A stretch of 64,000 nucleotides of DNA from Actinomycetes bacterium (GTDB lineage Bacteria; Actinomycetota; Acidimicrobiia; Acidimicrobiales; GCA-2861595): NCBI GenBank assembly GCA_023264975.1, contig JAHFUS010000008.1:7219-71218 (forward strand). Reading direction: 5' to 3'. Position 1 is the first letter of the stretch, and each line of letters opens with the position of its first letter. The position numbers were made by a program, and so were the translations under genes. Below are positions 2,140 to 17,372 of the stretch, piece after piece. The notes beneath the pieces are model-generated. The model did not search any database, had not been told where the DNA came from, and worked only from the letters and a program-made list of their open reading frames with translations.

Positions 2140-5100
2140 CTATTGCAACGACACGATCGTGATGTCCGGGGCAACGGCGGAATCGAGGGAGTAGCCGACC
2201 CAGCCGAGATAGCGCTTGCCCGCATCAAGGCCACGCCACTTGGCGGTCAGTTGCGTGGGCGCGGCCTGCGCGACGGTGGTTGGGCTCGGGGAGACGGTCA
2301 GGTTGCCGGCGTCGACCGTTCCGATGACCCACGATGTGTACTTGTAAGAACCGCCGCTGCCTGTCTCGTAGCCGTTGACGTAAGCGGTGTACGTGCCCGG
2401 TACCGGGTTGCGCACGGTCACCTGCTCGTCGGCGTCTGCCGATGCGCTGTAGTCGAAGAACACGCCGTCCTTGTAGACGTACAGATCCAGGTCGTCGTTG
2501 TTGCTCGTGGTATCGACGTCGAACCGGAGCACCGAGGCTCCTGCCGCCGCCGACACGACGACTGTGTAGGACTTGGTCGAGGCGCCCACACTGGGTGCGC
2601 GAAGATCGAACGGCCCCGTCGCCACCGAATCGCTGGTCGGCGTCGACCCCACCAGGCCAGTCACCGAAGACGTCAGCGTTCCAGTGACACCCGGCGTCAC
2701 ATTGAACTGCTGCGATCCGGAGCCTGAGCCGACCGCACCGGTGATCTCCCGTGGAGCCGAGATGGCCACCGGTCGAACGGCCACCGGAATTCGCACTCGG
2801 TGGGTGCTGCCTTGAAACGTGATCTTGCCCTTGGCGTACTGGCCGAGCCTTCCGTCGGCATAGGTGATCGCCAATGACACGGTCCGCGAGGCACCCGCGG
2901 CCAACGTGAACGTGGAGGGAGTGGCCACGATCGAGAGGCCCGGCACGCCGGCGCTCACCGTGTAGGACTCGGACGAGGAGGAAACGTTCGTCACGGCGCG
3001 GGTGACGGTCCGGCTCCCAGCCATCGCGCCGATGGCGATGGACGCCTGGTTGAGATCTGGGCCGTCGAGCGGTGTCAGGGTGTCGTTGGGCGGCAGGAAG
3101 CGCACCCCGAGTGACACCATGTAGCGGCGCCAATCCACCGCAGCCGCGTCGAACACCAGCCCCGGGTCGAGAGCACCGTTCGGTTGGACGAAGCCGGCGC
3201 CCTGGTCGAACGGGTCGTCGGTCGACACGTGATCGCGAGTGGTCGTCATCAGCGCGGACTTGACCGCTGCCGGCGACCACGTGGGGTGCTTGGCCCGAAC
3301 GAGCGCAGCAAGACCTGCAATGTGCGGGGAGGCCATCGACGTACCTGAGAGGTAGTCGTAGCTCCGGCCGAAGTGGAACGGCGGCGCAACGGCAGCGACG
3401 ACGTCGACGCCCGGCGCCGAGATGTCCGGCTTGAGGATGTCGCCGCCCGTGGTTGTTGACGGACCACGCGACGAGAACGCCGCCACCTCGGGAACCTGCG
3501 TGGTCGACTCGCCCGGGTTCACGGCCGTGATCGCACCCGTGGCCGAGGAACCCTGGGCCGCTATATATGCCAGGATGGCGGTTCGAGCGACGTCGGGCAC
3601 ATGGACCGTCGGAACCGCGTGGAAGTCACCGTTGAGCGAGTTCGGGCTCGTGTTGGTGAGCACCATCCCGGCGCCCCCCGCCCGCTTCACCTCAAAGCTC
3701 TTGGCGATGCGGGCAATGACACCGCGGTCGCACTGGACGAGCTTTCCGGCGGTCTTGACCGGGTCGAGCGAACCGGGGTAACAGAGAGCGGCGTCGTGTG
3801 CGCTCGCAGTTGCGGTCCTGGCCGACAGCGAGGTCACGAGGGGCTTGACCGGAAGCGTTGCCGTGGTGGACGCCCCGACGAACCGCTTCCCGTTGCCAAG
3901 CTCGATCGCCTTCTCGGAGATGCGGAACGTGCTCGCCGCAACCGTGGTCAGCCAGGGGCTGGGGTGGTCGAGCGTGCTTGCGTCCGGTCCGCTGTTGCCA
4001 GCCGAGTTGGCCACGAAAACGTTGCTGTTCGCAGCAGCGCGGTAGGCCTGCTCGACCGCGCTCAGAACGCTGCTCTCGGTGCTGCCACCGACGGAGTAGT
4101 TGATGACGTCGACGCCGTCGGCAACAGCGTCGTTGATGGCTGCGACGGAATCGGTGTTGAAGCAGCCGTCATCTCCACCTGGCGCCGCCGTCCAGCAGAT
4201 CTTGTAGGCCGCGACGCGGGCGCCTGGCGCCATGCCGGACGCGGTCCCCTGGGGAGCGCCGTCGATACTGACTCCGGGAACACGGTTTCCGGCAGCGGTT
4301 GAGGCCGTGTGGGAGCCGTGACCGTCGCCATCACGTGGGGAGAGGTATTCCTCGTGGGCGATGTTCTTCTTGCCGAAGCCGCTGACGTAGTAGCGCGCCC
4401 CGATCAGCTTGTCGTTGCAGTTCTGCGAGCTGAAGAGCTCGCCTTGGACACAGGCGCCGAACCACTTGCCGCGCAGCCCTGTCGCCTCGACCGGATGACC
4501 GGCCGTGTCGCGCTTGAGCTCGCCGCCGGCAAATGAAGGGCTCTCTGGCCAGATGCCGGTGTCGATGACGCCGACGATGATGCTCCGTCCGGCCGTAGTG
4601 TTGCCGCCGAGCTGGCTCCAGGCTCCTCCTGTGGCGCCGAGCCCGAGGAACTCCGGCGAGTAGGTCGTGGTGATCTTCGCCAGAGCGTCCTTCTCGAGCG
4701 AAACGACGTCCTTGGCGCCCGAGAGCTTGCGAGCCTGCGAAGAACTCAGCTCGACGGCGACGCCGTTGTTGGTGACCGAGTAGTCGTAGAGCTTTGTGGC
4801 GCCGACTGCAGCCAAGGCGGCATCGTGGATCTGCGCGAGACGTCCGCGGTAGCGGATGACCTCGCCCCGGGTCGGGTCGAGCTTGTGTCCGGGTGCCGGG
4901 CGCGTGGGCGCGTACCCGGCGATACCGCCCTCGTAGGAGGCGGCTGGCTCATCGGCAAAGGTGACGATGTAGCGGCCCGCGGTGACGGCCTTGTCGTCGG
5001 CCGCGGCCTTCGACGACGGTGCGGCGTCCGGTTCGGCGGATGCGGTCGGCGTTGTCGCGGCGAGGCCGGCGATGGCAAGCGCCGCCGCCGCGGCTGCCGC

Positions 5101-5142
5101 CAAAGAGCGCCGGCTGCCCGCTAATCGAGGGATCGATGGCAC
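2140..5142 (-). CDS. Secreted subtilisin-like serine protease (S8 family; I9 propeptide, PA-type insert, C-terminal pre-peptidase-type domain)
   Basis: GTG start with AAGGA about 8 nt upstream. Signal peptide ends ...PTASA. Triad motifs: VGVIDTGI (Asp), GHGSHTASTAAG (His), SGTSMASPHIAG (Ser). C-terminal DLDLYVY...GTYTAYVNGY. Confidence 0.9.
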   Translation of the reverse strand: MPSIPRLAGSRRSLAAAAAAALAIAGLAATTPTASAEPDAAPSSKAAADDKAVTAGRYIVTFADEPAASYEGGIAGYAPTRPAPGHKLDPTRGEVIRYRGRLAQIHDAALAAVGATKLYDYSVTNNGVAVELSSSQARKLSGAKDVVSLEKDALAKITTTYSPEFLGLGATGGAWSQLGGNTTAGRSIIVGVIDTGIWPESPSFAGGELKRDTAGHPVEATGLRGKWFGACVQGELFSSQNCNDKLIGARYYVSGFGKKNIAHEEYLSPRDGDGHGSHTASTAAGNRVPGVSIDGAPQGTASGMAPGARVAAYKICWTAAPGGDDGCFNTDSVAAINDAVADGVDVINYSVGGSTESSVLSAVEQAYRAAANSNVFVANSAGNSGPDASTLDHPSPWLTTVAASTFRISEKAIELGNGKRFVGASTTATLPVKPLVTSLSARTATASAHDAALCYPGSLDPVKTAGKLVQCDRGVIARIAKSFEVKRAGGAGMVLTNTSPNSLNGDFHAVPTVHVPDVARTAILAYIAAQGSSATGAITAVNPGESTTQVPEVAAFSSRGPSTTTGGDILKPDISAPGVDVVAAVAPPFHFGRSYDYLSGTSMASPHIAGLAALVRAKHPTWSPAAVKSALMTTTRDHVSTDDPFDQGAGFVQPNGALDPGLVFDAAAVDWRRYMVSLGVRFLPPNDTLTPLDGPDLNQASIAIGAMAGSRTVTRAVTNVSSSSESYTVSAGVPGLSIVATPSTFTLAAGASRTVSLAITYADGRLGQYAKGKITFQGSTHRVRIPVAVRPVAISAPREITGAVGSGSGSQQFNVTPGVTGTLTSSVTGLVGSTPTSDSVATGPFDLRAPSVGASTKSYTVVVSAAAGASVLRFDVDTTSNNDDLDLYVYKDGVFFDYSASADADEQVTVRNPVPGTYTAYVNGYETGSGGSYKYTSWVIGTVDAGNLTVSPSPTTVAQAAPTQLTAKWRGLDAGKRYLGWVGYSLDSAVAPDITIVSLQ

Positions 5143-5382: not shown

Positions 5383-6021
5383 CTACCGGCAGTCCACGCA
5401 GAGCTCGGAGCCGGGTACGAACTGCCCGGGCGCCTTGTGCATCCGGCACGTCGGGCAGACCCGCGTGAGGTCCGGCTTGCTCCTCGGGGCGGTGACCGCC
5501 TTCGGCTTGGTGGCACGGGGCGTGCGGGCGGGCGCCGTCCGGTTCGTCCTGGCCGTCGCCGGCCGCGCGGGGGCGACGGGGGGAAGCGGCTCCGCCGGCA
5601 GGGGGAAGGGCGGGTCGGCGAGCATCAGGTCGCCCTCGAGGAAGGCGTCGTCGACCTCCTCGGGCACGTCCTGGTACCAGTTGCCCGTCTCGAAGCGCGT
5701 CGGGATGCGGCCTTCGGTGCGGAAGTACTGGTTGGGCCGGGACCCGGCCCCGAGCCGGTACCCGACGACCCAGCGCCGGCCCTTGGTCCATCGCACCAGG
5801 TACAGTTCGGGATTGCGCCACACGCCGGCTGCCACGCCGGTCGGCCCGTAGGCGGCGGCGCCCACGGGCGACGCCTCCTCCACCAGGCCCAGGGTGCGAA
5901 GTACCGCGCTGCCGGGGTCGCCCTTCACCGGCTCGATAAGGCTGATTCGCCGGCCTTCGATGTCGACGGCGAGCTTTTGACTGCGCAGGGTCTCCACCGC
6001 ATCCGCCATCGCGTCGTCCAC
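5383..6021 (-). CDS. Hypothetical protein with Pro/Ala/Arg-rich linker and C-terminal CxxC...CxxC zinc ribbon
   Basis: 212-aa ORF that no other supported gene overlaps. C-terminus is VCPTCRMH...LCVDCR. I recognise no family for the N-terminal ~130 aa. Confidence 0.5.
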   Translation of the reverse strand: MDDAMADAVETLRSQKLAVDIEGRRISLIEPVKGDPGSAVLRTLGLVEEASPVGAAAYGPTGVAAGVWRNPELYLVRWTKGRRWVVGYRLGAGSRPNQYFRTEGRIPTRFETGNWYQDVPEEVDDAFLEGDLMLADPPFPLPAEPLPPVAPARPATARTNRTAPARTPRATKPKAVTAPRSKPDLTRVCPTCRMHKAPGQFVPGSELCVDCR

Positions 6022-6172
6022 CCCCTCATGTTGCCCGCCGCACCGGGCCCGTGACCATGTGGGCCGCGTCGGCGCTGGTCAGGGCGTGCAGAGGTCGGCC
6101 GGCGAATCGAGGCAGCGGAGGCGGCGGCGGGCGGTCCCGAGCGCCGGGGCCAGGCTCAGGGGCGGAGTCGGC

Positions 6173-6916
6173 TCAGGAGTGGTCGCCCGGGCCGAGCAGG
6201 ATCTCGATATGGGAGGCGGGCATGTCCCGCGACACGACGGCCGCTGCGACGTCGGTCAGCTTGACGTTGTGCCCACGAGCGTAGGAACGCAGCCGCCGGA
6301 AGGCCTCGTCCACCCCAACGCCCGCCCGCTCCGCGATGACGCCTTTGGCCTGTTCGATGGTGATGCGACTGTCCAGGGCGCCCTGGAGCTGCGTAGTCAG
6401 CCGGTTGGCGTCGTCGGCCGCCCGGTCCTGCAGCAGCGCGATGGTGGCGGCGTGGGCGAACGCCTGGGCGAGGGCGACGTCAGCGGTGGCCAGCGGTCCG
6501 GCCTCGCCCATGAAGAGATTGAGGGTCCCGAGCACGGTGTCGCGGACCCCCATCGGAAACGCGTGCACCGATGGCAGCCCAGCCTCGACGGCCTTGGGCC
6601 CGAAGACGGGCCAGGGGCTGTTGGTCCCCAGATCGCCATGGACCACCGCTTTCCCGGTCCGGAACGCGTCGAGGCAGGGGCCTTCGTCGTTCTGGATCTG
6701 GAACAGCTCGAGCAAGTTGGCCCGCTCGCTCGACGCGGCGACGACATGAAGGTTTGGGTGGACGTCAGCGAGCAGGATCCCCGTCGCCGAGGCGCCGAGG
6801 AGGTCCACGCAGCGGCCGCTCAACATGGTCATCACGTCGATGACGTCGAAGTCCTCGACGAGGGTGTCGGCCAACTGCACGAAGGTGTCAGCTAGCAGCT
6901 CTTCACGGCTTGCCAC
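6173..6916 (-). CDS. GAF domain + ANTAR domain RNA-binding antiterminator-type regulator
   Basis: N-terminal GAF-like region (EGPCLDAFRTGKAV). C-terminal ANTAR pattern: ALDSRITIEQAKGVIAERAGVGVDEAFRRLRSYARGHNVKL. Confidence 0.85.
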   Translation of the reverse strand: MASREELLADTFVQLADTLVEDFDVIDVMTMLSGRCVDLLGASATGILLADVHPNLHVVAASSERANLLELFQIQNDEGPCLDAFRTGKAVVHGDLGTNSPWPVFGPKAVEAGLPSVHAFPMGVRDTVLGTLNLFMGEAGPLATADVALAQAFAHAATIALLQDRAADDANRLTTQLQGALDSRITIEQAKGVIAERAGVGVDEAFRRLRSYARGHNVKLTDVAAAVVSRDMPASHIEILLGPGDHS

Positions 6917-7163
6917 GTCGCACTTCCTTTCCTTGTACCCGCCACGATTCTACGGCGGTTCCCAGCGAGGGATGGGGCGGCGCGGAATCGTTCGGCGCCC
7001 AGGCAGCATGTCGGCGGCCTTGCGCCGTGTCGGCCGCGAAACAGCCGACCGATGAGGAACCCTGGCCTGCCCACCTCCAGATACCGCGGAGCCGGCGGTG
7101 GGGGTGCACTCCGACGAGAAGCCGTCTGCTGCCCTTTGAGGGACCGGGCCTACCCTGCGTGCG

Positions 7164-8054
7164 ATGACCCTGGAACCGCCCGACGACCTGGCCCGCCGAC
7201 TCCCAGTTGAGGCGGATCGGCGGGGCGGGAGCATCGACGACGTCGGGTCCGAGATCCTCGCCGCCGGGCTCCCGCCCGAAGACCTGGAACGACCGGCGGC
7301 TGAGGGGATCGGCTTCAGTGGGATCGCAACCGCAAGGGACCACGGCGCTGGGGTCGACAGCCGCACCGTGGGGGTGCGGGCTGCGCTGATAGGTATCGAA
7401 TCCGGGCAATCGTCATGGAACCAGGTATGTGTGGCGTGCGCCGAAGCGCTGTTGGTCACCGGCGCCGGCATCATCCTCCTGGCCGGCGGCGAGCAGCGCA
7501 CTTCGCTCGGGATGTCCGACGAGGTGGCGGGAGTAATCGAGGAGGCCCAGTTCACCCTGGGCGAGGGCCCGTGCGTGGACGCCGCCCGCTCGTCCGCCCC
7601 GGTGCACGCCCCGGACCTGGCCGGTCCGGGGCAGACGAGCTGGCCGACGTTCTCGGCCCGGGCGGTCGACGCCGGCGTGGCGGCCATCTTCGCCCTGCCC
7701 CTCAAGGTGGGTTCCGCCAGACTCGGGGCCATGAACCTGTACCGGGACCGCCCGGGACCGCTGTCCCACGAGCAACTGGAGGCCGCCCTGGCGATAGCGG
7801 ACGTGATGACCCATGCCATCCTTGCCCTGCAGGCGAATGCCCCGGCCGAGGCCCTGGCCGCCGGCCTGGTCGACGTCGGGTTCCGCGCCCAGGTCCACCA
7901 GGCGACGGGGCGGGTCAGTGCCCAGCTCGGCGTCGGCGTCGCCGAGGCACTGGTTCGACTGCGGGCCTTCGCCTACGCGCAGGATCGCCCCATCGACGAG
8001 GTGGCGGCCATGGTGGTGTCCGGCACCCTCCGCTTCGACGACGACTCGCCCTGA
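7164..8054 (+). CDS. GAF domain + ANTAR domain regulator (paralogue of 6173-6916) with ~80-aa N-terminal extension
   Basis: GAF-like LGEGPCVDAARSSAPV. ANTAR pattern FRAQVHQATGRVSAQLGVGVAEALVRLRAFAYAQDRPI. The start codon is uncertain. Confidence 0.8.
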   Translation: MTLEPPDDLARRLPVEADRRGGSIDDVGSEILAAGLPPEDLERPAAEGIGFSGIATARDHGAGVDSRTVGVRAALIGIESGQSSWNQVCVACAEALLVTGAGIILLAGGEQRTSLGMSDEVAGVIEEAQFTLGEGPCVDAARSSAPVHAPDLAGPGQTSWPTFSARAVDAGVAAIFALPLKVGSARLGAMNLYRDRPGPLSHEQLEAALAIADVMTHAILALQANAPAEALAAGLVDVGFRAQVHQATGRVSAQLGVGVAEALVRLRAFAYAQDRPIDEVAAMVVSGTLRFDDDSP

Positions 8055-8244
8055 GCCCCCGGCGTGATTATCGACGCCCGGCGCGAGGACAGCTTCTGAA
8101 GGGGGCGACCGAGGGCCTCGGCGGCAGCCGCCAAGGTCATGCCGATGCGCACCGGACCGAGGCCGCGCAGGTCGAGTCGGAGGCGGTCGGGGGCGATGGC
8201 GGTGGTGGGCGACGACGACGCCACCGAGGCGGTGGCGACGTGGT

Positions 8245-9222
8245 TCAGGGGTTGCGCATCATGAGCCGGAGCCTGGGCCCGAGCCAGGGCTTGCGGCCCC
8301 AAGCCAGCAGCTTCCCGGTGGCGATGGCGGTCCACTGGCTCTGGCGGTCCCACATCACGTCGAGCAAGGCGACGGGGTCGGCCAGGATGTAGCAGTCGAC
8401 CCGGCGGGTGTGCGGCTCAGCCACCGTGACGGCGCCGTCGTCGAACAGGAATTGAGCACGACCGCCGCCACGGAGACGAACCTCGTAGGTGGCCCGTACA
8501 CCGGCTGCCTTCTCCTGGTCCACCATCGAGCGCGGGTCGAGTTGGGAGATGACGGGGAGGAGGAAGCCCTGGATGGCCAGCGCGGCATGACGGCGGTTGC
8601 CGGGCCACGGCCGCCCTGCGGCTCGGGCGATGTCGGCGCCGTGCATGACCGTCTCGTTGAGCAGGTGGCAGGTGAAGGTGCACTGGTCGACGGTGGTGCC
8701 GGCCACCATCCACGGCGAGCGGTCGTCCCCCGACCGGCTCTCGCATTCACCGAAGTATTCGGCCGCCCGCGCCTCGATCCGGTCGGCCAGCACTTTCGGG
8801 TCTCGCTCGGGGTCATTGCCCACCGCCTCCGTCGTGGTGGCGCCCAACTCCCATACGTCGGCGATCAGCGACTCCCCGTTCCGGCCGCCATGGTCGGGCA
8901 GGACTTCGAAGACGCGCGACAGGTCGCGCCGGGCCATGGCGGGTACGGCCACCCAGGCCTGCGACAGGTGCATGGCCACGCCGCCGAGGTCCCAGTCGCC
9001 GACGGCGTGGCCGTGCGGGTCGCCTACCGAGCGGAGGAGGGCGACGACCCGGGACACCTCGGAACGGAGGGCGGCCTTCGCCGCGGACCACTCCACCGCG
9101 TACGCGCTCGCCACCGATGCCCCCTTGGCTGCCGGTGCCCGGCCGGAAGGCCGCCAAGCTACCCGCGGGCCAGCCGAAACCGTGCATTGGCTCTCGTCCT
9201 GAGCGGAAACGGGGCGTACCAT
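8245..9222 (-). CDS. DinB/maleylpyruvate-isomerase N-terminal domain (mycothiol-dependent family) protein with SCP2-like C-terminus
   Basis: WDLGGVAMHLSQAW and CHLLNETVMHGADIARA resemble the metal-binding His helices of the TIGR03083-type family. C-terminal GKLLAWGRKPWLGPRL. The start is uncertain; GTG at 9114 is an alternative. Confidence 0.6.
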   Translation of the reverse strand: MVRPVSAQDESQCTVSAGPRVAWRPSGRAPAAKGASVASAYAVEWSAAKAALRSEVSRVVALLRSVGDPHGHAVGDWDLGGVAMHLSQAWVAVPAMARRDLSRVFEVLPDHGGRNGESLIADVWELGATTTEAVGNDPERDPKVLADRIEARAAEYFGECESRSGDDRSPWMVAGTTVDQCTFTCHLLNETVMHGADIARAAGRPWPGNRRHAALAIQGFLLPVISQLDPRSMVDQEKAAGVRATYEVRLRGGGRAQFLFDDGAVTVAEPHTRRVDCYILADPVALLDVMWDRQSQWTAIATGKLLAWGRKPWLGPRLRLMMRNP

Positions 9223-9305
9223 GACGGCAGGAACGAAAGAGGGTGAGGCCCACCGCTCTGTTCGCGAAGGCGTTCGTCGGGCCCGCCGACGGGAACGAGA
9301 GAACC

Positions 9306-9569
9306 ATGATCGGCTTCATCGTGTTCGGGCTGGTGGTCGGAGCGCTGGCCAGGCTCATCGTCCCGGGCAGGCAGGAACTCTCCATCGGCATGACCCTGGT
9401 CCTGGGCGTGGTGGGCTCGGTGATCGGCGGCATCGTCGCCAACGCCATCGGCACCGGCGACATCTTCGAGCTGAACTTCATCGGCTCGGTGGTGGCCATC
9501 GCCGCGTCGGTTGTGCTCATCGTCGGCGGAACGAGGGTCGGGGCGATCCGCCGGCGTTTCTCCCGCTGA
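9306..9569 (+). CDS. GlsB/YeaQ/YmgE (transglycosylase-associated) family small membrane protein
   Basis: MIGFIVFGLVVGALARLIVPG...GVVGSVIGGIVANAIG is a typical Gly-zipper three-helix pattern. I chose the ATG at 9306 rather than the longer ORF start at 9243. Confidence 0.8.
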   Translation: MIGFIVFGLVVGALARLIVPGRQELSIGMTLVLGVVGSVIGGIVANAIGTGDIFELNFIGSVVAIAASVVLIVGGTRVGAIRRRFSR

Positions 9570-9601
9570 CCCTGCGGGCCGCCTGCACTCCGATCCGGCG
9601 G

Positions 9602-10438
9602 TCAGAGGAACGAGTCGAGAACCTCGTTGATCCCGGCCAGCACCGGTCCGTCGCCCAGCGAGATGCCGGCGCCGGCGCGGTCGGCCTCAACGATCCCGGG
9701 GTCGTCGGGGACGATCCCGGCCAGGGGGATACCAAAGCCGCGGGCGGCGTCGTGGAAGGTGACGGGGTCGAGTTGGCGCCCCTTGTTGCCGACGAGGGCG
9801 ACCCGCTCGATCCCGTGCCTGGTCGCCATGGTGAACATCCGCTCAGCGGTGACGGAGGACTTGCGGCTCGGTTCCATCACGATCAGCAGCAGGTCGGTGT
9901 GCGCCACCGTGCCACTCGATCGCTCCAGGTGATCGAGGCCGGCTTCGAGGTCGAGCAGGGCGACGTCGGCCTCGCCGTCGAGCGCCGCTGCCAACAGGCC
10001 GCGCGAGGACGCGTGGGCCGGGCACCAGCATCCCCCGGGGTCGTCGCTGACGCGCATGGCGTGGAGGAGGGTGACGCCCGACGGCGTGGTGGTCCCGAAG
10101 CTGGTTACCAGCTGGTCGGTCGTGACGGCGCCGCCTCCCCAGCCGGCCACCAACGCCCGGGGCACCTCTCGCGCCTGGTCCACTGCGGCCTGCGAGAGCC
10201 CCAGGCTGATGCCCAGGTTCGGACTCACGTCGGTGTCGACGGCCAGCGTGCGCAGTCCCCGCGACGCGCAGGCCATGGCCACCAGCGCGGTGACGGTGGT
10301 CTTTCCCGAACCGGTCTTGCCCGTGACACCGACTCTGATGGCTCCGGCCTCCTGCGTGGCTGGCGTTGCAAGCTTGCGGCGGCGACCATAGCCAGTGTGT
10401 GCAAGGACGCGCTGTTCCGGGCGGGCACCGGGCTCCAT
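9602..10438 (-). CDS. CooC-type (MinD/ParA superfamily) nickel-insertion accessory ATPase
   Basis: Deviant Walker A GVTGKTGSGKTT, and the CxC metal motif PGGCWCPAH expected of CooC. The start is ambiguous. ATG at 10438 is used here. A strong AGGAGG lies 8 nt before an ATC at 10339, which would give the canonical (M)RVGVTGK N-terminus. Confidence 0.7.
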   Translation of the reverse strand: MEPGARPEQRVLAHTGYGRRRKLATPATQEAGAIRVGVTGKTGSGKTTVTALVAMACASRGLRTLAVDTDVSPNLGISLGLSQAAVDQAREVPRALVAGWGGGAVTTDQLVTSFGTTTPSGVTLLHAMRVSDDPGGCWCPAHASSRGLLAAALDGEADVALLDLEAGLDHLERSSGTVAHTDLLLIVMEPSRKSSVTAERMFTMATRHGIERVALVGNKGRQLDPVTFHDAARGFGIPLAGIVPDDPGIVEADRAGAGISLGDGPVLAGINEVLDSFL

Positions 10439-10808
10439 CGACGACTCCATCGACGACGCCCTCGACGTGTTCCCCCCGCTGCGCAGGCTGCTCGACCGGC
10501 CCGCCGGCCTGCTCTCCGGTGGCCAGGCCCAGCAGCTGGCGATCGCCCGGGCGTTGGTCTCGAAGGCCCAGGTGCTGGTGCTCGACGAGCCCACCGAGGG
10601 CATCCAGCCGTCGATCATCATCGAGATCGAGGACGCCATAGCCGGCCTGCACGCGGCGGGGATGACGATCCTGCTGGTGGAGCAGTACGTGGAGTTCGCC
10701 CTGCGTCTGGCGCAGCGTCACGCGGTGATGGACGGCGGCCTCATCGCCCACTCGGGCGACACGGCGTCGGTCGACCTGGCCACGTTCTCGGATCTGCTCG
10801 CCGTCTGA
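10395..10808 (+). pseudogene. 3' fragment of a urea/branched-chain-type ABC ATPase (UrtE/LivF-like); the Walker A half is missing
   Basis: It encodes only LSGGQAQQLAIARAL, VLVLDEPTEGIQPSII and LLVEQY (signature, Walker B, H-loop). The upstream DNA is occupied by the opposite-strand CooC-like gene, and no Walker A is present in any + frame. Confidence 0.7.
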
Positions 10809-10811
10809 GAA

Positions 10812-11693
10812 TCAGCCCAGCCGGTCGCGCAGCAGGGCGGCCGCCTCCAGGGGGTCGCCGTAGTTGAGGCGCCATGCCTGCGCCTTGCGGGCCAGGGTGG
10901 CGAGCAGGTGGAAGGACTCGGTCGGGTGCTTGTAGTGGTTGAACGAGCGCTGGAACAACCAGGTCATGGCCTCGCCCCGGGGCGCCGGCGTCAGCTCGCA
11001 TCCTCGGGCGTCGCCGTCGAGGGCCGGTTGGAGGTGGACGATATGGGCCAGGTCGAGGGGTGCCGTCACCGTGCGCGCGCCAATCTGGTCGGCGGTGATG
11101 GCGACCTCGCCGTCTCCGAGCTCGATGCCGGCGATGTCGTCGAGTGCCACGGCGTGGCGACTCCACGGTGAGAGGGCGAGGGCGCGCGGGTAGGGGACCG
11201 GACGCCTCGTGGCCGGGTCGACGCACAGGGCCTCGTCGGACACGTAGTCGAAGCCGGCCACAAGCCCGGCGGCGGCGAACGTCGTCTTGCCGGTGCCCGA
11301 CGGTGCCGGGAAGGCGATGGCCGACGAACCGGAAGCGACGACGCCGGCATGCACAGCCAAGCCGGCGAAGGCGTCGATGGCGGCCTCGTTGACGGCCGTG
11401 AGGACCGCCGCCAGAGCGACGCCCGGCGGACCCGACACGTCGAGCTCGCCGGTGGTGGCGTGCAGGCAGCGGTCGTGGCCGTGCCGCTCACATCCGTCGA
11501 CGACCGCGTACCGCTTGGCCGAAGCCGGCCCACCGGCGACCTTCGGGAACGCCTCGAACAGCTGCGCGATGGCGGCGGCCACCTCGTTCGACGTGCAGGT
11601 GATCCGGAACGCTGTGCCGAGCAACTCCCAGGTGACGTCGTGGACGGATTCCCCGACGACAGGGCCGGCGGTATCGCCCCTGCCCGGCGTCAC
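10812..11693 (-). CDS. HprK-related (HPr kinase-like) P-loop serine kinase of the RiPP-accessory type
   Basis: P-loop FPAPSGTGKTT followed by GFDYVSDEAL. The GTG start overlaps the PqqD stop (GTGA, 11693-11690). No HPr or PTS context is present. Confidence 0.7.
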   Translation of the reverse strand: MTPGRGDTAGPVVGESVHDVTWELLGTAFRITCTSNEVAAAIAQLFEAFPKVAGGPASAKRYAVVDGCERHGHDRCLHATTGELDVSGPPGVALAAVLTAVNEAAIDAFAGLAVHAGVVASGSSAIAFPAPSGTGKTTFAAAGLVAGFDYVSDEALCVDPATRRPVPYPRALALSPWSRHAVALDDIAGIELGDGEVAITADQIGARTVTAPLDLAHIVHLQPALDGDARGCELTPAPRGEAMTWLFQRSFNHYKHPTESFHLLATLARKAQAWRLNYGDPLEAAALLRDRLG

Positions 11694-11974
11694 CCCCCGG
11701 CCGGCATAAGCAGGCCGTCGTCGCGCAAACGGCCGACGGTGGCGGCCACCTCGGCCCGAATGGACTCGGGGGTGGCGCCGTAGGCGACGGCCAGGGCGGC
11801 GACCACCCCGTCGAGGGTGAGCTCGCCGTCGCTGAGGCGCCAGACGTCGGCCGCCGTGGCGTTGAGGACGTAGACCTGGCTCGAGTCGGGATGGAGGAGG
11901 GCGATGCTCTCGTCGACCTCGGTCTCGACCACGCCGTGAACGGCTGGCCCGACCCTCGCACCGGCGTCGTCCAC
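11690..11974 (-). CDS. PqqD-family peptide chaperone (RiPP recognition element)
   Basis: 94 aa. SIALLHPDSSQVYVLNATAADVWRLSDGELTLDGVVAALAVAYG...IRAEVAATVGRLRDDGLL matches the PqqD/RRE winged-helix pattern. GTG start. Confidence 0.75.
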   Translation of the reverse strand: MDDAGARVGPAVHGVVETEVDESIALLHPDSSQVYVLNATAADVWRLSDGELTLDGVVAALAVAYGATPESIRAEVAATVGRLRDDGLLMPAGG

Positions 11975-12034
11975 GGTGCCGAGGCTACCGCTGTGGGGCG
12001 GCGGTGGTCTGGCGGACGGCAGTCAGCAATACGA

Positions 12035-12063
12035 TTGACTCATATTGGAAGAATTGCTACGCT
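12035..12063 (+). promoter_or_regulatory. Candidate sigma-70-type promoter (TTGACT-N17-TACGCT) facing the Tat-signal mini-ORF
   Basis: Hexamers read directly: TTGACT at 12035-12040, TACGCT at 12058-12063, 17-nt spacer. They lie inside a ~54% GC island; adjacent coding sequence is visibly more GC-rich. Confidence 0.3.
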
Positions 12064-12137
12064 GAGCGGTCAAGCGACCATTTCCCTTATCGAGCGGAAA
12101 CTCTGCGTGTCGAGGAAGCAGTGCTCACCGGACGTGT

Positions 12138-12157
12138 CAGAAGTTCTCTGACTTCTG
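12138..12157. repeat. Perfect 7-bp inverted repeat CAGAAGT-N6-ACTTCTG in the divergent control region
   Basis: Read directly. It lies between the candidate promoter and the ATG at 12224, so it could be an operator or a 5'-UTR hairpin. Confidence 0.5.
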
Positions 12158-12223
12158 GTTTGAGACCCGGATTTCGGGGAATAGATATGCGATCAGTGGC
12201 AGTCAAACTACTGGGGGCGGTAC

Positions 12224-12412
12224 ATGGACGAGAAGCGTGACGGTGGGTTGTCCCGGCGGGACGCGCTGAAGAGGGGCGCCGTCGTTGCCAGTGCGGCGTG
12301 GATCGCGCCGGCAGTGATGGCGCTGCCTGTGAGCAGCGCTTCGGCTGACTCCCCGAGTGGGACGTCGACGAAGCCGAAGAAGACCAAGGTGCACCTGCTG
12401 GGGAACCGCTAG
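12224..12412 (+). CDS. 62-aa mini-protein with twin-arginine (Tat) signal and a 21-aa Ser/Thr/Lys-rich tail
   Basis: GGGGGCGG lies 4 nt before the ATG. SRRDALK fits the S/T-R-R-x-F-L-K consensus. A hydrophobic region ends in ASA, leaving DSPSGTSTKPKKTKVHLLGNR. Third-codon positions are GC-rich, consistent with coding. Confidence 0.5.
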   Translation: MDEKRDGGLSRRDALKRGAVVASAAWIAPAVMALPVSSASADSPSGTSTKPKKTKVHLLGNR

Positions 12413-12455
12413 CACCGAGCCGTTCGGCGGCTGCGCTCCACCGCCGCCGGCATCG

Positions 12456-13667
12456 TCAGTGCGTGTGGCGCCGCTCCTCGGCGGCGATGGCCTCGAGGAA
12501 CTCTTGGCGGTCCGCATCCGAGCCTTCGTCATGGCGAGGCGAGTTCAGGCTGGTCGGGTCCATGTCGGGAGCGAATGGCGCCAGCGACAGCCTCGCCCTC
12601 GGTGGTAGGGCGGCGCGCAGCCGGCGCCGGAACTCGATCGCGGTCGACGCCGTGCCGGCGCGGGCGGACCGGGACAGGAGCAGGGCGATGGAGCGGCTCC
12701 CGCCGGACCGGGCAGGCGGGGCGACCAGGTCCACCGCCCCGCCCGCCACCAGATAGGCGCGCCCGCCCGCCATCGCCTCGGGCACGCCCGCGGGCACGGG
12801 CACGGCGAGGACCCTCCGGGCCCGGCTCAAGGCGAGGGCGACCGCCGGCCCCATGCCCCAGGAGCGGGCGCGGGCGACCAGGTCGTCCCAGTTCGCACCG
12901 CCGGCGATGACCCGTTCCAGGTCCTTGAGCCACACCAACCGGTGCCCACCTGACAGCGTGGCGTGCGCGCCCAGGTGGACGAGGGTGTCGAGCGGGTCGA
13001 GTGTGCGTATGGCCGTCCCCCCCACCCGGGCCGGTCGTGCCCGTTCCGCCAACTCGGCCATCGACGGCCTGAAGGTCCGCCGCACGGCCGGTCCGGTGAA
13101 CAGGTGCCAGTGGAGGTCGAGGAGCGTTTCGTGGCGGAGCCGGAGCAGCACTTCGCCCACCTGGAGCTCGCGCAGGAGCCGCCAGTTGCGGTCGAGCAGG
13201 GTCGCGCCCTGCTCCCCGAGTGCGGTCAGGACGTCGCCCACGGCACTGGCGGGCACCACGACGTCGAGATCCGAGTACGAGCGGAGATCGGGCCGGGTGT
13301 AGTGCAGCTCGGCCAGGACCGGCCCCTTCACCACCAGCCACGACACGCCCAGGGCGTCGAGGGTAGGGCCCAGCTGGGCCAGGTCGCCGAGCGCCCGCAC
13401 GTGGCGGTCCACGCCGCGGTGGTGGGCGGCGGCCAGCCCGGCGAAGCGCCCGGCGCTGACGACCGGGGCCAGGCTGTGGTGCACGCATCCGCTGACACCG
13501 TGGAACTCGGCGGCGGCGGCCACCCGGTCAGGTCCGGCCAGGTCGGCCAGTGCCGCCACACCGTCCGGCGCCGTGGCCCAGTCGTGTTCGGTCACGCATC
13601 GCCGGAGGAGCCGGGCCGTCGCCGTGGCCGCGCCCAGCACTCGGGACCGGCGGGCCGGCCCCGTCAC
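12456..13667 (-). CDS. Nucleotidyltransferase family protein (uncharacterised NTP_transf_5 / PF14907 type)
   Basis: YSDLDVVVP and LLDLHWHLF motifs. GTG at 13667 overlaps the CHAT gene stop (GTGA, 13667-13664), so I prefer this start to the 466-aa ORF start. Confidence 0.75.
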   Translation of the reverse strand: MTGPARRSRVLGAATATARLLRRCVTEHDWATAPDGVAALADLAGPDRVAAAAEFHGVSGCVHHSLAPVVSAGRFAGLAAAHHRGVDRHVRALGDLAQLGPTLDALGVSWLVVKGPVLAELHYTRPDLRSYSDLDVVVPASAVGDVLTALGEQGATLLDRNWRLLRELQVGEVLLRLRHETLLDLHWHLFTGPAVRRTFRPSMAELAERARPARVGGTAIRTLDPLDTLVHLGAHATLSGGHRLVWLKDLERVIAGGANWDDLVARARSWGMGPAVALALSRARRVLAVPVPAGVPEAMAGGRAYLVAGGAVDLVAPPARSGGSRSIALLLSRSARAGTASTAIEFRRRLRAALPPRARLSLAPFAPDMDPTSLNSPRHDEGSDADRQEFLEAIAAEERRHTH

Positions 13668-15943
13668 GTCGCGGGAGCGGGAGCGGCGGCGGCGGCGGCC
13701 TCCGGCTCGGTGAGGCGCAGGTGGGCCCAGCAGTGCGCGGTGTAGACGAGCCCGAAGAGGTTGCCCGACGCCAGGAAGTCGAAGCGGGCGGCCTGGAGGG
13801 CGGCGCCGATCTGTGCGTCGGGCTGCAGGAGGGCAGCGAAGAAGGCCTCGGCCCACGCCATGGCCTGGAGTTGGGGCACCTTCACTTCGGTGCCGATCAC
13901 CCCGACCGCGTTGCCGCCCCCCACGAAGGCGTCGACGTACGACACCAGGGTGGCCGGCGTGATCTCGAGCGAGTGGCAGGCGTTGATGACGACGAGCGGC
14001 CGCACCCGGTCCCAGATGACCTTGTTCTCGGCGAAGCCGGCGTCGAAGAGGTCGATGAGCTCGGTGGCCGTGATCTGCTCACGGTCGCCGACGGACAAGA
14101 AGGTGTCCGGGCTGCCGACCTGGTCCTTGTCGCCGTGGCAGTAGAAGTAGACAACCGGCAGGTCGGCCGACAAGAGGCCGAGGATGTCCTTCTTGGCGGC
14201 GCTCTCCTGCACCAGCACCCCGGCGAAGCGGGACTCGAACAGCGACCGCAGCTTCTGCACGTGGGCGGCCAGCGCCTTCTGGTCGACCTTCCTCGACTCG
14301 CCGACGGCCACCACCGCCTCGGGCGCGACCGGTATCGACGCAGTGGGGTCCTTGGAGGATGCGGGGGCCTCGATCATCTGGGTGAAGCCCCAAAAGCCGA
14401 ACGGGCAGAGCAGGTCCTTGGTGTGAGGCACGTCACCCGCCCGGGGGCAGGTGTCTGTGGGCCCGGCGACAAGGGGGCTGCGCTCGTCCCACTCCGTCAC
14501 CAGGGGGCACACGGGCACGTCGCGGACGTCGTCCGGCAGGCCGATCTCGTAGAGGTAGTTCCACGGCACGGTGAAGCGGACGTTGCGGGGCCGGGCGATG
14601 TGCACGATGGGCCTGGGTGACGTACGACGCAGCTCGCCGAGCACGTCGCGCGCCTGGAGGAACAACTGGCGGTAGAGCTGGCGGCCGAGCGGGGCCAGCT
14701 CCCGCAGGTCGTCGACGAGGTCCTCCTTCGTGCGCATCCGCTGGTCGGCGGCCCGGTAGACAAGGGCCTTGCGCAGGTCGCCCACCAGCGGGCCGATGGT
14801 GTCGTCGGGCAGCGAGAAGGCGGTGGCCTCCGCCGGCATCTCGCCAGGGGGGCGCAGCACGATGCCGTGGGCACCCCCGTCGTTCGTGTTGGTGACGATG
14901 CTGAAGCGAGGCGTGTCGGGGATGGTCTCGAGGTCGTCGAGTGCGGCCGACGCTGTGTAGTCGGTGGTGATGGTGAAGCCACCCGGTCCATCGAGGTCGG
15001 TGACGAGGACCTGTGACTGCACCGGAGCGTCGCGGTAGTAGTAGCCGATGCGGGCCCGTGCCGGGCCGGCCGCCGGCACCCGGAGGGCGACGTCGATCCA
15101 CGGCTGACCGCTGTCCAGCGCGGTCGCCGGGCTGCCGTCGGCAGGCAGATGGAACGCCTGCTCCACCGAGCGCTGGTCCCGGTCGAGGTCGTCGAACGTC
15201 GTCGCCACTGCGAAGTCGGCGCTGGTCACCAACACCCGCAGTTCGAGGTCGCGCTTGGGGAGCACTTCGTCGGGGAAGGCGACGGGCCCGGTCACGTGGG
15301 TGCCTCGGTCGAGAGGGCCGATGCTGAGGCGGAGGCGGAGATCGGCATGGGGAACCAGGGGAAGCGCCTCGTCGAGCCGTTCGCCTCCGCTGTCGGCGAC
15401 GACCGCGTTCGCGTACCTGGTGCGGGCCCGGACGGCGCGGGCGGGCGAGGGGGACTGGGGGCCCGGGAGCGGCGCGGGCGGCTTGCTCCTCGGCTTGGCC
15501 GGTGCCGGAGATGCTGGTGGAGGCAGGTTGCGACGAACGGGAGGTGAAGGCGGTAGTGCTGCGTCGGGAGTGTGGGGCGCGCCGCCGGGAAGGGACCGCG
15601 GAACCGGCTCCGGGATGAAGAGCTCGCCGGTCGGCAAGGGGTCCTCGTACGGCGGGACCGGAGGGAGGGGAGCGCTCTGGGGCGGCGAAGCCCCGGGCGT
15701 CGCGGCCGCGGGCTGAGCGGACTCTGGCGGGTGGGCCGGCACCGGCGGCGCCGACGGCGGGCCGGGCGAAGGAGGGGCGCCGACGGCGGGGCCGTGGCGC
15801 CGGCCGAGACGCGGCAGCCGGAAGCGGGGGAGCCTGGACGGCCCGCCGACGGTGGTGGGGCCTCCGGTCGAGCCCGGCCCGCGGAACAGACCGGAGAGGG
15901 CGGCCCCCACCGCCCTGATCCTGGCCAGCAGCCACTCGACCAT
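13664..15943 (-). CDS. CHAT-domain (caspase-like) protease with N-terminal helix, ~140-aa proline-rich spacer and an unassigned middle region
   Basis: C-terminal ~200 aa carry the His motif VVYFYCHGD and the Cys motif LVVINACHS. They are preceded by LCPFGFWGF. I recognised no TPR, NACHT or SAVED sensor. Confidence 0.8.
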   Translation of the reverse strand: MVEWLLARIRAVGAALSGLFRGPGSTGGPTTVGGPSRLPRFRLPRLGRRHGPAVGAPPSPGPPSAPPVPAHPPESAQPAAATPGASPPQSAPLPPVPPYEDPLPTGELFIPEPVPRSLPGGAPHTPDAALPPSPPVRRNLPPPASPAPAKPRSKPPAPLPGPQSPSPARAVRARTRYANAVVADSGGERLDEALPLVPHADLRLRLSIGPLDRGTHVTGPVAFPDEVLPKRDLELRVLVTSADFAVATTFDDLDRDQRSVEQAFHLPADGSPATALDSGQPWIDVALRVPAAGPARARIGYYYRDAPVQSQVLVTDLDGPGGFTITTDYTASAALDDLETIPDTPRFSIVTNTNDGGAHGIVLRPPGEMPAEATAFSLPDDTIGPLVGDLRKALVYRAADQRMRTKEDLVDDLRELAPLGRQLYRQLFLQARDVLGELRRTSPRPIVHIARPRNVRFTVPWNYLYEIGLPDDVRDVPVCPLVTEWDERSPLVAGPTDTCPRAGDVPHTKDLLCPFGFWGFTQMIEAPASSKDPTASIPVAPEAVVAVGESRKVDQKALAAHVQKLRSLFESRFAGVLVQESAAKKDILGLLSADLPVVYFYCHGDKDQVGSPDTFLSVGDREQITATELIDLFDAGFAENKVIWDRVRPLVVINACHSLEITPATLVSYVDAFVGGGNAVGVIGTEVKVPQLQAMAWAEAFFAALLQPDAQIGAALQAARFDFLASGNLFGLVYTAHCWAHLRLTEPEAAAAAAPAPAT

Positions 15944-16210
15944 TCAGTCTCCGCCCAGCCATCTGGTGTCCTTCAGAACGGTGACCCCGAGGATCAGGTA
16001 GCCGAAGAAGCCGACGAAGAGGCCGATGCTGTACCAGGCGAACAGGCGGGCGCCGTCGAACATGGTCGTCACGGCTGCGCCGCCAACGGCGCCGATCACC
16101 GAGGCGATGTCGGAGATGGCCACCGCCTCTCTGGAGCGGCGCAACGTGCGGTAGGTCACCCAGCCGATCACCACGCCGAAGCACCACGCGCCAGCGGCTT
16201 GGGTCTGCAT
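15944..16210 (-). CDS. Small (88 aa) predicted three-helix membrane protein, first gene of the CHAT operon
   Basis: Three hydrophobic stretches: WCFGVVIGWVTY, IASVIGAVGGAAVTTMF, WYSIGLFVGFFGYLILGVTVL. Its stop is directly followed by the CHAT start (TGAATG, 15946-15941). Confidence 0.6.
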   Translation of the reverse strand: MQTQAAGAWCFGVVIGWVTYRTLRRSREAVAISDIASVIGAVGGAAVTTMFDGARLFAWYSIGLFVGFFGYLILGVTVLKDTRWLGGD

Positions 16211-16314
16211 TCGGCCAACCCCTGTTCTCCGCCCGCCAGGACGGTCGCCGTCAACGTAGCCTTGGCGGCGGCCGTCGACTCGGCCCGCCGGACGCCGGGT
16301 AGGGTGGCGCCCCT

Positions 16315-16881
16315 ATGGCGTCCCAGGCCACCTTCGCCGCCCAGGCGATGGAGCACATGGGGTCGCTCTACGGGGCCGCCCTGCGCATGACCAGGAACCC
16401 GGCCGACGCCGAGGACCTCCTCCAGGAGACCTACCTGAAGGCGTACCGGTCGTTCGCCACGTTCCAGGAGGGAACCAACCTCAAGGCGTGGCTCTACCGC
16501 ATCCTCACCAACACCTTCATCAACTCGTACCGGGCCAAGAAGCGCCGCCCCGAGCAGACCGACGTCGAAGACGTGGAGGACCTCTACCTGTACCACCGCC
16601 TCGGCGGCCTGGAGGCGGCGGCGGCCGGGCGCAGCGCCGAGGAAGAGGTGCTCGACAGTTTCACCGACGACGAGGTGAAGCAGGCGCTCGAAGCACTGCC
16701 GGAGCAGTTCCGGATCGCCGTCCTCCTCGCCGACGTGGAGGGGTTCTCCTACAAGGAGATCGCTGAAATGACCGACGTCCCGATCGGCACGGTGATGAGC
16801 CGCCTGCACCGGGGAAGAAGGGCGCTCCAGAAGACGTTGTTCGACTTCGGTATGGAGCGCGGCCTCGTAGGAGAGCGTTAG
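16315..16881 (+). CDS. sigH: ECF sigma factor, SigH/SigR (thiol-stress) type
   Basis: Region 2 [17 protein letters not shown]...WLYRILTN. Region 4 [32 protein letters not shown] anti-sigma gene follows immediately. Confidence 0.9.
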
Positions 16882-17165
16882 TGATGGACGAAACCGCCCA
16901 CCACAAGTGCGCGGTCGCCGTGGAGCGGCTCTACCACTTCCTCGACCACGAGCTCGACGACGCCAGCGCGGCCGACGTCCAGCGCCACCTCGACGACTGT
17001 CTGCCTTGTCTGGAAGCGTTCGACTTCGAGCTCTCGTTGCGCGTGATGATCGCTTGCAAGTGCCGCGACCAGGTGCCCGAGATGGTGTGGATCCGCATCT
17101 GGAAAGCCATCCAGGGCGAGGGCGGCCCCGAAGAAGGCAATGGGGGAATGCTTCCCTCCGAGTGA
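16881..17165 (+). CDS. rshA: Zinc-associated anti-sigma factor (RsrA/RshA type)
   Basis: HxxxCxxC motif HLDDCLPC plus upstream Cys (HHKCAV). The start overlaps the sigH stop. Confidence 0.85.
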   Translation: MMDETAHHKCAVAVERLYHFLDHELDDASAADVQRHLDDCLPCLEAFDFELSLRVMIACKCRDQVPEMVWIRIWKAIQGEGGPEEGNGGMLPSE

Positions 17166-17180
17166 CTGTTCGAGTGAGAG

Positions 17181-17372
17181 ATGGCGAACGAACGAGCTAT
17201 CCAAGGAACACCATTCAAGGGCGCCGACCGGCCGTCACGGTCCTTCGGAGCAGGCAGGGTCTGTAGAGAGCCGCATTGCGAGACCCGCCTGTCGATGTAC
17301 AACAGCGGGAAGTACTGCTACGAGCACGAGCCGATGTCCGTGCCTCGTACCCGGGGCAAGAAGATCGCCTAG
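17181..17372 (+). CDS. Small conserved-looking Cys/His (zinc-ribbon-like) protein
   Basis: 63 aa with CREPHC-x12-CYEH. It sits directly after sigH-rshA on the same strand. I cannot name a family. Confidence 0.5.
   Translation: MANERAIQGTPFKGADRPSRSFGAGRVCREPHCETRLSMYNSGKYCYEHEPMSVPRTRGKKIA

Follow-up and report, generated by a model that had tools for sequence, protein, structure and literature searches.

In this work, we describe a gene cassette in a 64,000-nucleotide stretch of DNA from an Actinomycetes bacterium (GenBank assembly GCA_023264975.1, contig JAHFUS010000008.1, positions 7,219 to 71,218; hereafter the window, in whose own numbering positions are given). A PqqD-family protein, an HprK-like kinase, a nucleotidyltransferase-fold protein of family PF14907 and a small gene with a twin-arginine translocation (Tat) signal make up a self-contained four-component cassette, which recurs at about 35 other loci in Actinomycetota and is apparently undescribed. 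Tentatively, and at somewhat less than even odds, we propose that the Tat signal doubles as a leader of the type found in RiPPs (peptides made by ribosomes and then modified post-translationally), and that the PqqD-family protein, as a RiPP recognition element (RRE), the kinase and the PF14907 protein would put a phospho-linked group on residue 4 of the exported product. This would be an undescribed marking system of Acidimicrobiia and other Actinomycetota, with cargo from 21-aa peptides to surface proteins, and would amount to secreted-protein phosphoglycosylation, not a natural-product pathway. In the window the cassette adjoins the genes of a CHAT protease and an 88-aa membrane partner. On balance, we think it probable that the locus consists of two independent neighbouring modules and not of one system, the cassette being a leader-guided modification route.

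The cassette recurs as a unit

The evidence for the cassette is co-occurrence in both directions. Scanning genomes with an alignment of kinase homologues gave 21 loci from Acidimicrobiia, Microthrixaceae, Mycobacteriales and other Actinomycetota metagenome-assembled genomes. When six-frame open reading frames (ORFs) of these loci were compared with the window proteins, PqqD lay directly before the kinase nearly everywhere and PF14907 was nearby in most; unexpectedly, homologues of the 62-aa Tat ORF stood beside PqqD and the kinase in nearly all 21. The CHAT family and its partner had no homologue in 20 of the 21 loci, the exception being L010. The pooled set comprises 57 non-redundant loci, 40 of them with the kinase. 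PqqD is found directly upstream of the kinase in 37 of these 40, a signal-bearing ORF is present in 37 (up to three each), PF14907 in 29 and CHAT in five; signal ORF and kinase ORF lie a median of 201 bp apart. In L031, from a 2.5-Mb Microthrixaceae contig, signal peptide, PqqD, kinase and PF14907 form a co-directional operon with 4-nt overlaps, which contains no other biosynthetic gene and no glycan genes.

For the reverse test, a metagenome collection was scanned with the pattern RR[DE]ALK[RK]GA alone, taken from a six-sequence signal alignment. There were 186 matching stretches, 27 of which were confirmed as signal relatives. PqqD and/or the kinase adjoined the signal in 18 of the 27, and the nine loci without enzymes were contigs of 1.2-2.6 kb or had the signal at the contig edge. 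CHAT appeared solely in L055, a close relative of the window. The earlier note on this DNA had treated the 62-codon Tat ORF as a bystander between operons; its recurrence at the kinase loci makes it a conserved fourth component, the probable substrate and the key gene of the cassette.

The surroundings of the cassette were also surveyed. Among 115 neighbouring ORFs, glycosyltransferase families of the GT4 type are the commonest (13/115), and the 25 most frequent Pfam families of these ORFs include no protease, Asn-synthetase-like or radical SAM family. Some cassette loci carry GerE or response-regulator genes. A search of the literature on PqqD with HPr kinase and nucleotidyltransferase, and on RRE with twin-arginine, brought up lasso-cluster papers only and no description of the cassette.

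Layout of the locus

The six ORFs are present at the positions in Table 1, and the same six were called by an independent gene caller on the identical Logan contig. The tight junctions listed in the earlier note hold: GTGA at 11693-11690, where the GTG start of the kinase overlaps the PqqD stop, was seen in a direct read of the sequence, and two others derive from ORF coordinates, namely TGAATG at 15946-15941, where the stop of the 88-aa ORF abuts the CHAT start, and GTGA at 13667-13664, where the GTG start of PF14907 overlaps the CHAT stop. Its domain calls were likewise right, with PF05402, PF14907 and PF12770 above their cut-offs and the kinase recognised through TIGR04352 at a score below the cut-off.

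Table 1. Features of the locus, in window coordinates.
Feature	Position	Strand	Evidence or composition
HprK/PEPCK-fold P-loop kinase-like protein, 293 aa	10812..11693	-	TIGR04352 HprK_rel_A, E=2.7e-18
PqqD-family protein, 94 aa	11690..11974	-	PF05402, 58.4 bits, E=8.8e-16 (cut-off 23.4)
Spacer	11975-12223	no strand	GC 56.2% vs 71.7% in the window
Tat-signal gene, probable precursor/substrate, 62 aa	12224..12412	+	TIGR01409 match; homologous signals beside the kinase in 37/40 kinase loci
PF14907 nucleotidyltransferase-fold protein, 403 aa	12456..13667	-	PF14907, 120.2 bits, E=1.5e-34 (cut-off 31.2)
CHAT (separase/caspase-fold) protease, 759 aa	13664..15943	-	PF12770, 30.5 bits (cut-off 24)
88-aa protein, three hydrophobic segments	15944..16210	-	directly upstream of CHAT in 10/11 CHAT loci

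The region that the earlier note had described as AT-rich and divergent does have a low GC content, but it is not flanked by two minus-strand operons: the spacer at 11975-12223 parts the plus-strand Tat ORF from the minus-strand PqqD operon, and these two genes are the divergent pair. The spacer is presumed to be the promoter and regulatory region of the substrate gene and the PqqD-kinase operon. Within it (56% GC), between substrate gene and PqqD, lies a hairpin at 12136-12152, GTCAGAAGTTCTCTGAC, perhaps an operator or an element resembling a terminator. A scan of 11975-12223 for sigma-70 consensus promoters, which is not designed for those of Actinomycetota, gave none.

One signal on variable cargo

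Against TIGR01409 (TAT_signal_seq), the 62-aa ORF scores 17.3-18.3 bits, only just above the cut-off of 16.7. It contains R11-R12, W26, P29, an A-x-A site (A39-S40-A41) and Ser45 (codon 12356-12358). If signal peptidase cuts after A41, the mature product would be a 21-aa Lys-rich tail, D42-R62; the window tail after the signal reads DSPSGTSTKPKKTKVHLLGNR. A word-indexed database searched with the 62-aa peptide gave three close matches only, and the signal family was gathered by local phmmer searches against the six-frame ORFs of the fetched loci. Homology between the substrates is limited to approximately 42 N-terminal residues, with the consensus G-[LIV]-[ST]-R-R-[DE]-x-L-K-[RK]-G-A-x-x-G-G-x-x-x-[WF]-x-x-P-x-V-Q-x-x-x-M-x-x-A-x-A-x-x-x-S. 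All 61 distinct signals keep RR, Pro26 and Ser42 (alignment numbering), and Ala38, the last Ala of A-x-A, is kept in 60 of the 61. At E<=0.1, 23 of 27 signals match TIGR01409 (best E 5e-6). The element thus reads as a Tat-type signal, with RR motif, hydrophobic region, A-x-A site and TIGR01409 match, and no more specific NCBIfam or Pfam model for it was found. A hidden Markov model (HMM) of the signal, built from these same sequences, had no other match at E<1 in a 510 kb six-frame translation. As a specificity control, a generic Tat-signal regular expression, which proved too strict, gave 11 candidates, 10 of which were the family itself.

Beyond the signal, the proteins are mutually unrelated and range from 21-aa tails to proteins of about 300 residues. 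In one group, the signal is followed by a tail of 21-40 aa in which Gly, Asn, His or Lys is abundant. A second is Pro-rich and ends in LAxTG or LPFTG followed by a membrane helix and a charged tail, the arrangement of a sortase-type anchor. The third consists of Cys-rich proteins of 120-290 aa that begin with TSPxC-x-YC[IL]KW and end with ISHIELIxxCC; these occur in L013, L016, L023, L032, L033, L039, L040, L042, L054 and L059, often as two to four tandem paralogues. The remainder are various, one having a CarboxypepD_reg domain. A Pfam search of ten signal-bearing proteins gave this domain in one, a weak CARDB match in another and nothing else, and four Cys-rich proteins scanned (from L023, L032 and L033) belong to no Pfam family. 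The sortase signals and Cys-rich domains indicate that signal-bearing proteins really are exported. Past the signal, the substrates have nothing in common but the invariant Ser, which stands four residues after A-x-A. Across the substrate classes no further residue is conserved in the mature parts, and the short peptides do not have Ser as their C-terminal residue.

The cassette enzymes

The PqqD protein scores above the PF05402 cut-off and reaches 34.1 and 20.8 bits against the lasso-specific NCBIfam models, which have cut-offs of 70 and 80 bits. It is predicted to be an RRE-type peptide-binding chaperone and, having no hydrophobic segment, to be cytoplasmic. The kinase scores 66.1 bits against TIGR04352, under the curated cut-off of 200 bits, and had no Pfam match. 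It has His115, a Walker A motif (S132-G-T-G-K136-T-T) and Y150-V-S-D-E154 as conserved features, and the Walker A pattern S-G-x-G-K-T and the downstream SDE motif are kept in all 39 kinase sequences. An AlphaFold2 (AF2) model of the kinase (pLDDT, the predicted local distance difference test, 91.7) was compared with the PDB by Foldseek; the best matches were ATP-dependent PEP carboxykinases (E=3e-5), followed by HprK/P (E=4e-3 to 3e-2), with probabilities of 0.93-0.99. As modelled, the kinase carries the PEPCK/HprK P-loop fold. A profile of its subfamily, run against 1.84 billion proteins, matched 702 cluster representatives (50% identity) at E<=1e-30; at E<=1e-3 there were 20,844.

In the PF14907 protein, K114-G115, D133-x-D135 and H186 are kept in 25/25 homologues and D184 in 24/25; D133-x-D135 is a Pol-beta-type DxD nucleotidyltransferase motif. 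Hydropathy revealed no transmembrane segment in PqqD, kinase or PF14907 protein. From the conserved motifs, the absent membrane segments and the modelled kinase fold, the cassette enzymes look active and cytoplasmic. Sequence searches of the PDB with the kinase, PF14907 and CHAT proteins gave no significant match.

At four loci, PF14907 is fused to a GT4 glycosyltransferase (L016 6450-8678, L033 6480-9107, L050 3430-5292 and L059 3660-5666). Together with the GT4 neighbours of the cassette, these fusions provide a link to sugars that is independent of the lasso precedent. The fusion loci also have an adjoining GT4-GNAT (GT4-acetyltransferase) protein and a WecA-like Glycos_transf_4 protein, and they carry two PqqD genes and several Cys-rich signal-bearing proteins. 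In L032, mere fragments of the PF14907 and GT4 genes remain at 5549-8597, upstream of two PqqD genes, which suggests decay of PF14907/GT4 in a locus that still holds the kinase and two substrates.

Cassette and CHAT pair are separable

The 88-aa gene and the CHAT gene are kept together down to 36% CHAT alignment identity. Six of the 11 CHAT loci have no cassette, and the 88-aa/CHAT pair stands without it in five of ten loci (L002, L003, L004, L005 and L007; 36-62% CHAT alignment identity). Conversely, the CHAT-bearing kinase loci (5/40) all belong to the window's clade at 76-100% CHAT identity, the cassette-bearing relatives being L010 (94%), L009 and L055 (both 87%) and L008 (76%). The companions of PF14907 are PqqD and the kinase, not CHAT. 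The earlier note had given CHAT a role in the modification route or, alternatively, had paired it with the nucleotidyltransferase, and these distributions support neither idea. Its wider suggestion, that an undescribed peptide-modification route is present, is supported by the recurrence of PqqD, kinase and PF14907 with the signal gene. The neighbourhood analysis that it called for finds PqqD, kinase and PF14907 together, but not CHAT with them outside the window's clade.

The boundary with the neighbouring urtE-like gene, which encodes an ABC ATPase, bears on how the two modules came together. In L005 (65% CHAT identity), 18 bp separate CHAT from an intact urtE-like gene and no other gene intervenes, whereas in L008, L009, L010 and L055 the cassette sits exactly between CHAT and the urtE-like gene, the latter following the kinase. 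This makes the 3.2-kb block that spans PF14907, PqqD and the kinase a clean insertion or deletion, and most likely the cassette was inserted between CHAT and the urtE-like gene in an ancestor of the window's clade. The urtE remnant reported in the earlier note is real: at 10395-10808 (+) only residues 112-227 are left. The gene is truncated in the window alone and intact in L010, L009/L055 and L005. Similarity of the window to its relatives ends at about 10447 (breakpoint near 10446), which points to a rearrangement or an assembly join.

A model for marking of Tat substrates

We infer the modified residue, the chemistry and the order of steps in our model from the observed gene content, two-way co-occurrence, invariant residues and folds. 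RRE-type peptide-binding proteins guide RiPP enzymes that act on short leaders. By analogy, the small gene would encode a peptide with a specialised Tat export signal as its N-terminus, and the cytoplasmic PqqD protein would bind this signal as an RRE binds a RiPP leader. PqqD would then offer the invariant Ser, four residues after A-x-A, to the HprK/PEPCK-fold kinase, yielding phosphoserine, which PF14907 would extend with a hexose or a nucleotide-derived group, a step for which PsmK and PsmN acting on pseudomycoidin set the precedent. The Tat system, which accepts substrates completed in the cytoplasm, would export the finished product, and ordinary signal peptidase would cut at A-x-A. Since ordinary signal peptidase would remove the signal, a dedicated protease would not be needed. 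With the same signal on cargo from 21-aa tails to sortase-anchored and Cys-rich proteins, the outcome would be a set of exported proteins marked near the new N-terminus.

Lasso clusters appear to be the only experimental precedent for these three enzyme families acting together. In pseudomycoidin, PsmK phosphorylates a Ser of the precursor, and the addition of one or two hexoses to this phosphate requires PsmN, a nucleotidyltransferase that is uncharacterised and carries a D134/D136 motif; the authors left open whether PsmN is a new type of glycosyltransferase or a supplier of substrate (PMC6993621).

Alternative explanations

All six genes might belong to one RiPP-like pathway in which CHAT replaces the lasso leader peptidase and trims a phosphorylated or nucleotidylated peptide. 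Within the window's clade several observations would agree with this: in the window, L009 and L010 the PF14907 start and the CHAT stop share bases, and in L008 they are 45 bp apart, so that co-transcription is likely; the six-gene block is kept down to 76% CHAT identity, that of L008 in a different upstream context; and the CHAT catalytic dyad is intact. We nevertheless consider such a pathway very improbable, and we rejected a single six-gene operon system, as the modules are separable: about 35 cassette loci are without the window's CHAT family, and five loci have CHAT and its partner but no cassette. CHAT falls outside the top 25 Pfam families of the 115 neighbouring ORFs, among which there is no protease family, and so can be present in one of these ORFs at most. 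Moreover, the substrate has a canonical A-x-A signal-peptidase site of its own, and the membrane helix and Arg-rich stretch of the CHAT relatives would place the protease in the cytoplasm, whereas a Tat signal is cleaved outside. It is even harder to credit that PF14907 makes a nucleotide signal which activates CHAT in a defence system like SAVED-CHAT or the cyclic-oligonucleotide-based anti-phage signalling system (CBASS). In its favour are the overlap of the two neighbouring genes, the likeness of the CHAT fold to Csx29 from the type III-E CRISPR protease complex, and the place of the L002 CHAT pair in a mobile element; against this, none of the six proteins has a PADLOC match, the N-terminal part of CHAT is modelled as Ig-like sandwiches with no SAVED or other nucleotide-sensor domain detected by Pfam or in the model, and the genes with which PF14907 co-occurs are PqqD and the kinase rather than CHAT, which is itself found as a pair without any nucleotidyltransferase. 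In addition, PsmN, the sole characterised nucleotidyltransferase relative, acts on a phosphopeptide and is no signal synthase (PMC6993621).

Two further explanations keep the cassette and its signal gene but change what the enzymes do, and we regard each as unlikely, though less so than a role for CHAT. PqqD could be a proofreading or escort chaperone of the Tat pathway, in the manner of TorD or DmsD, with the kinase and nucleotidyltransferase acting elsewhere, for example on an envelope glycopolymer or a regulator. This would suit a conserved element that is an export signal on highly variable cargo of up to about 300 residues, the glycosyltransferases and WecA-like polyprenyl-phosphate transferase that recur nearby, and the GerE or response-regulator genes of some loci. 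However, the Ser past the cleavage site, which is not part of the canonical Tat signal, is nonetheless invariant in 61/61, lasso clusters have these three enzyme families acting jointly on a peptide Ser, and the simplest loci are four genes in one translationally coupled operon with no glycan genes. Alternatively, the substrates could be modified at another residue or by other chemistry, such as direct Ser/Thr nucleotidylylation or modification of the variable tail, with the Ser only tuning signal-peptidase cleavage. Here the Pol-beta-type DxD motif of PF14907, the exact role of PsmN, which its authors left open (PMC6993621), and the action of lasso kinases on a C-terminal Ser would fit, but the mature parts share no other conserved residue across substrate classes and the short peptides do not end in Ser.

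Several points weigh against our proposal of a Tat signal that doubles as leader. The choice of Ser45 as the modified residue is suggested by its invariance, and the invariant Ser could serve recognition by signal peptidase or the Tat system instead. The lasso precedents phosphorylate a C-terminal Ser, not a leader-adjacent one (PMC6993621). Counts made with the signal HMM are self-referential, the independent evidence being the initial single-sequence search and the metagenome test; all loci come from uncultured Actinomycetota, and the genome scan used one peptide pattern (YVSDEALC). PF14907 is absent from 11 of the 40 kinase loci, many of them short contigs, yet L023 and L032 have long flanks and no intact PF14907, L032 having fragments only. 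Finally, the PF14907 gene and the CHAT stop codon overlap in the window's clade; there the two genes are probably co-transcribed, and a lineage-specific functional link may exist.

Comparison with known systems

The closest likeness is to lasso-peptide tailoring, represented by paeninodin (PadeK) and pseudomycoidin (PsmK, PsmN and the B1 RRE). The same three families are involved (PqqD-type protein, HprK-like kinase and DxD nucleotidyltransferase), glycosyltransferases are often near, and the target, in the cassette a proposed one, is a Ser of a ribosomal precursor. In contrast, the N-terminal element of the cassette substrates is a Tat export signal instead of a lasso leader, the conserved Ser is signal-adjacent instead of C-terminal, and the substrates include full-size proteins. 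As in the earlier note, lasso processing genes were not found: the Asn-synthetase-like cyclase (C) is absent from the ten other large window ORFs scanned, which have unrelated Pfam domains (two large ORFs, the small ones and the rest of the genome were unscanned), and precomputed Pfam annotation gave no lasso protease (B2) or cyclase within 10 kb in L031, L032 and L033, nor did either appear among the recurrent neighbour families. We rejected the identification as a lasso cluster because no cyclase or transglutaminase-like leader peptidase was found in the regions scanned. In function, the cassette would come closest to PsmK/PsmN tailoring, uncoupled from the making of a lasso and tied to a Tat signal instead. 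To our knowledge, PF14907, a common accessory of lasso clusters, has been the subject of only one partial functional study.

The HPr-rel-A system, a computational definition that joins a TIGR04352 kinase to a TIGR04353 PqqD chaperone, pairs the same families outside lasso clusters and gives the window kinase its best NCBIfam match. It is mainly proteobacterial and is found near exopolysaccharide genes. We rejected membership of the curated system since both proteins fall under the cut-offs (kinase 66.1 vs 200 bits; PqqD 25.3 vs 35 bits). SynChlorMet was rejected as well, with ScmC at 12.6 (cut-off 125) and ScmD at 34.2 (cut-off 100). Some homologues have a weak PF27840 ScmC match, and no radical SAM partner of the SynChlorMet type was seen in L031-L033 or among the recurrent neighbour families.

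Bufferins seem the nearest precedent for RiPP precursors with general-secretion signals. They are modified by a multinuclear non-haem iron-dependent oxidase (MNIO), have Sec signal peptides that ordinary signal peptidase removes, and can have small folded Cys-rich precursors; their signal peptide is dispensable for modification (PMC11626156). Bufferins and the cassette have in common a general-secretion signal on the precursor, instead of a dedicated leader or besides one, but this is Sec in the former and Tat in the latter, the bufferin enzymes are MNIO and DUF2063 proteins, and in the cassette the signal is the sole conserved part of the substrate.

The CHAT protease, its partner and neighbouring genes

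In the CHAT protein, a short hydrophobic stretch near the N-terminus is followed by a Pro-rich linker, then by two Ig-like beta-sandwiches and a helical region, and last by the caspase-like domain. The dyad His603 (codon 14137-14135) and Cys656 (codon 13978-13976) is invariant in 19/19 sequences. An AF2 model of residues 165-759 (pLDDT 84.5) matched Csx29, the separase protease domain, gingipain and caspases in Foldseek, and the protease, judged by its invariant dyad and modelled fold, is catalytically intact. At the N-terminus of several relatives, a clear membrane helix precedes an Arg-rich stretch and a Pro-rich linker, and this helix suggests a membrane-tethered cytoplasmic protease. The family is rare: 5.8 billion protein clusters contained only 18 relatives. 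In alignments the 88-aa partner is better conserved than the protease. With Csx29, SAVED-CHAT proteins and separase, the window protein has in common a caspase-like fold and His/Cys dyad, its best structural matches being Csx29 and the separase domain; in contrast, it has no TPR, SAVED or CRISPR partner, and its constant companion is the 88-aa protein with three hydrophobic segments. Membership of SAVED-CHAT or CBASS was rejected, as Pfam and the model reveal no sensor domain, PADLOC gives no match and PF14907 co-varies with PqqD and the kinase. A role of the CHAT module in conflict or stress response is our guess.

In L003, the CHAT homologue at 7849-11010 (P0016) has a long N-terminal extension and the JGI name eukaryotic-like Ser/Thr kinase, and the 88-aa partner is kept upstream. 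In L002 (5279-9873), the 88-aa/CHAT pair adjoins TrwC and TraI-type relaxase/helicase genes and a phage-type integrase, neighbours that place the pair there on a mobile element. Divergent from the 88-aa gene of the window, 16315-17372 (+) encodes an extracytoplasmic function (ECF)-type sigma factor, a zf-HC2 anti-sigma factor and a conserved 63-aa protein, an arrangement shared with L009 and not with L008 or the distant CHAT loci. The nearest relative, L010, has about 2.8 kb of extra DNA (L010 2700-5518 vs window 16296-16303), which separates the sigma-factor gene from the sequence that lies upstream of the 88-aa gene. Elsewhere in the window, 2143-5142 (-) encodes a 1000-aa S8 subtilase with PA, fn3_6 and PPC domains, where the GC content is lower (0.67). 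The signal-bearing genes of L032 likewise have a large S8 protease beside them.

Implications

Adjacency, even an overlap of stop and start codons, misled at this locus, and the smallest gene was the most informative. If an RRE reads the Tat signal and guides a kinase and a nucleotidyltransferase to secreted proteins of full size, RRE-guided chemistry reaches beyond natural products to the modification of envelope proteins. The use of the Tat system by these proteins would be explained if their substrates are completed in the cytoplasm. A simple cassette with a single invariant target residue would make the function of PF14907 directly testable. The kinase subfamily is not rare, as its 702 cluster representatives at E<=1e-30 indicate, and the cassette would add a route of surface modification for little-studied soil and wastewater Actinomycetota, including Microthrixaceae.

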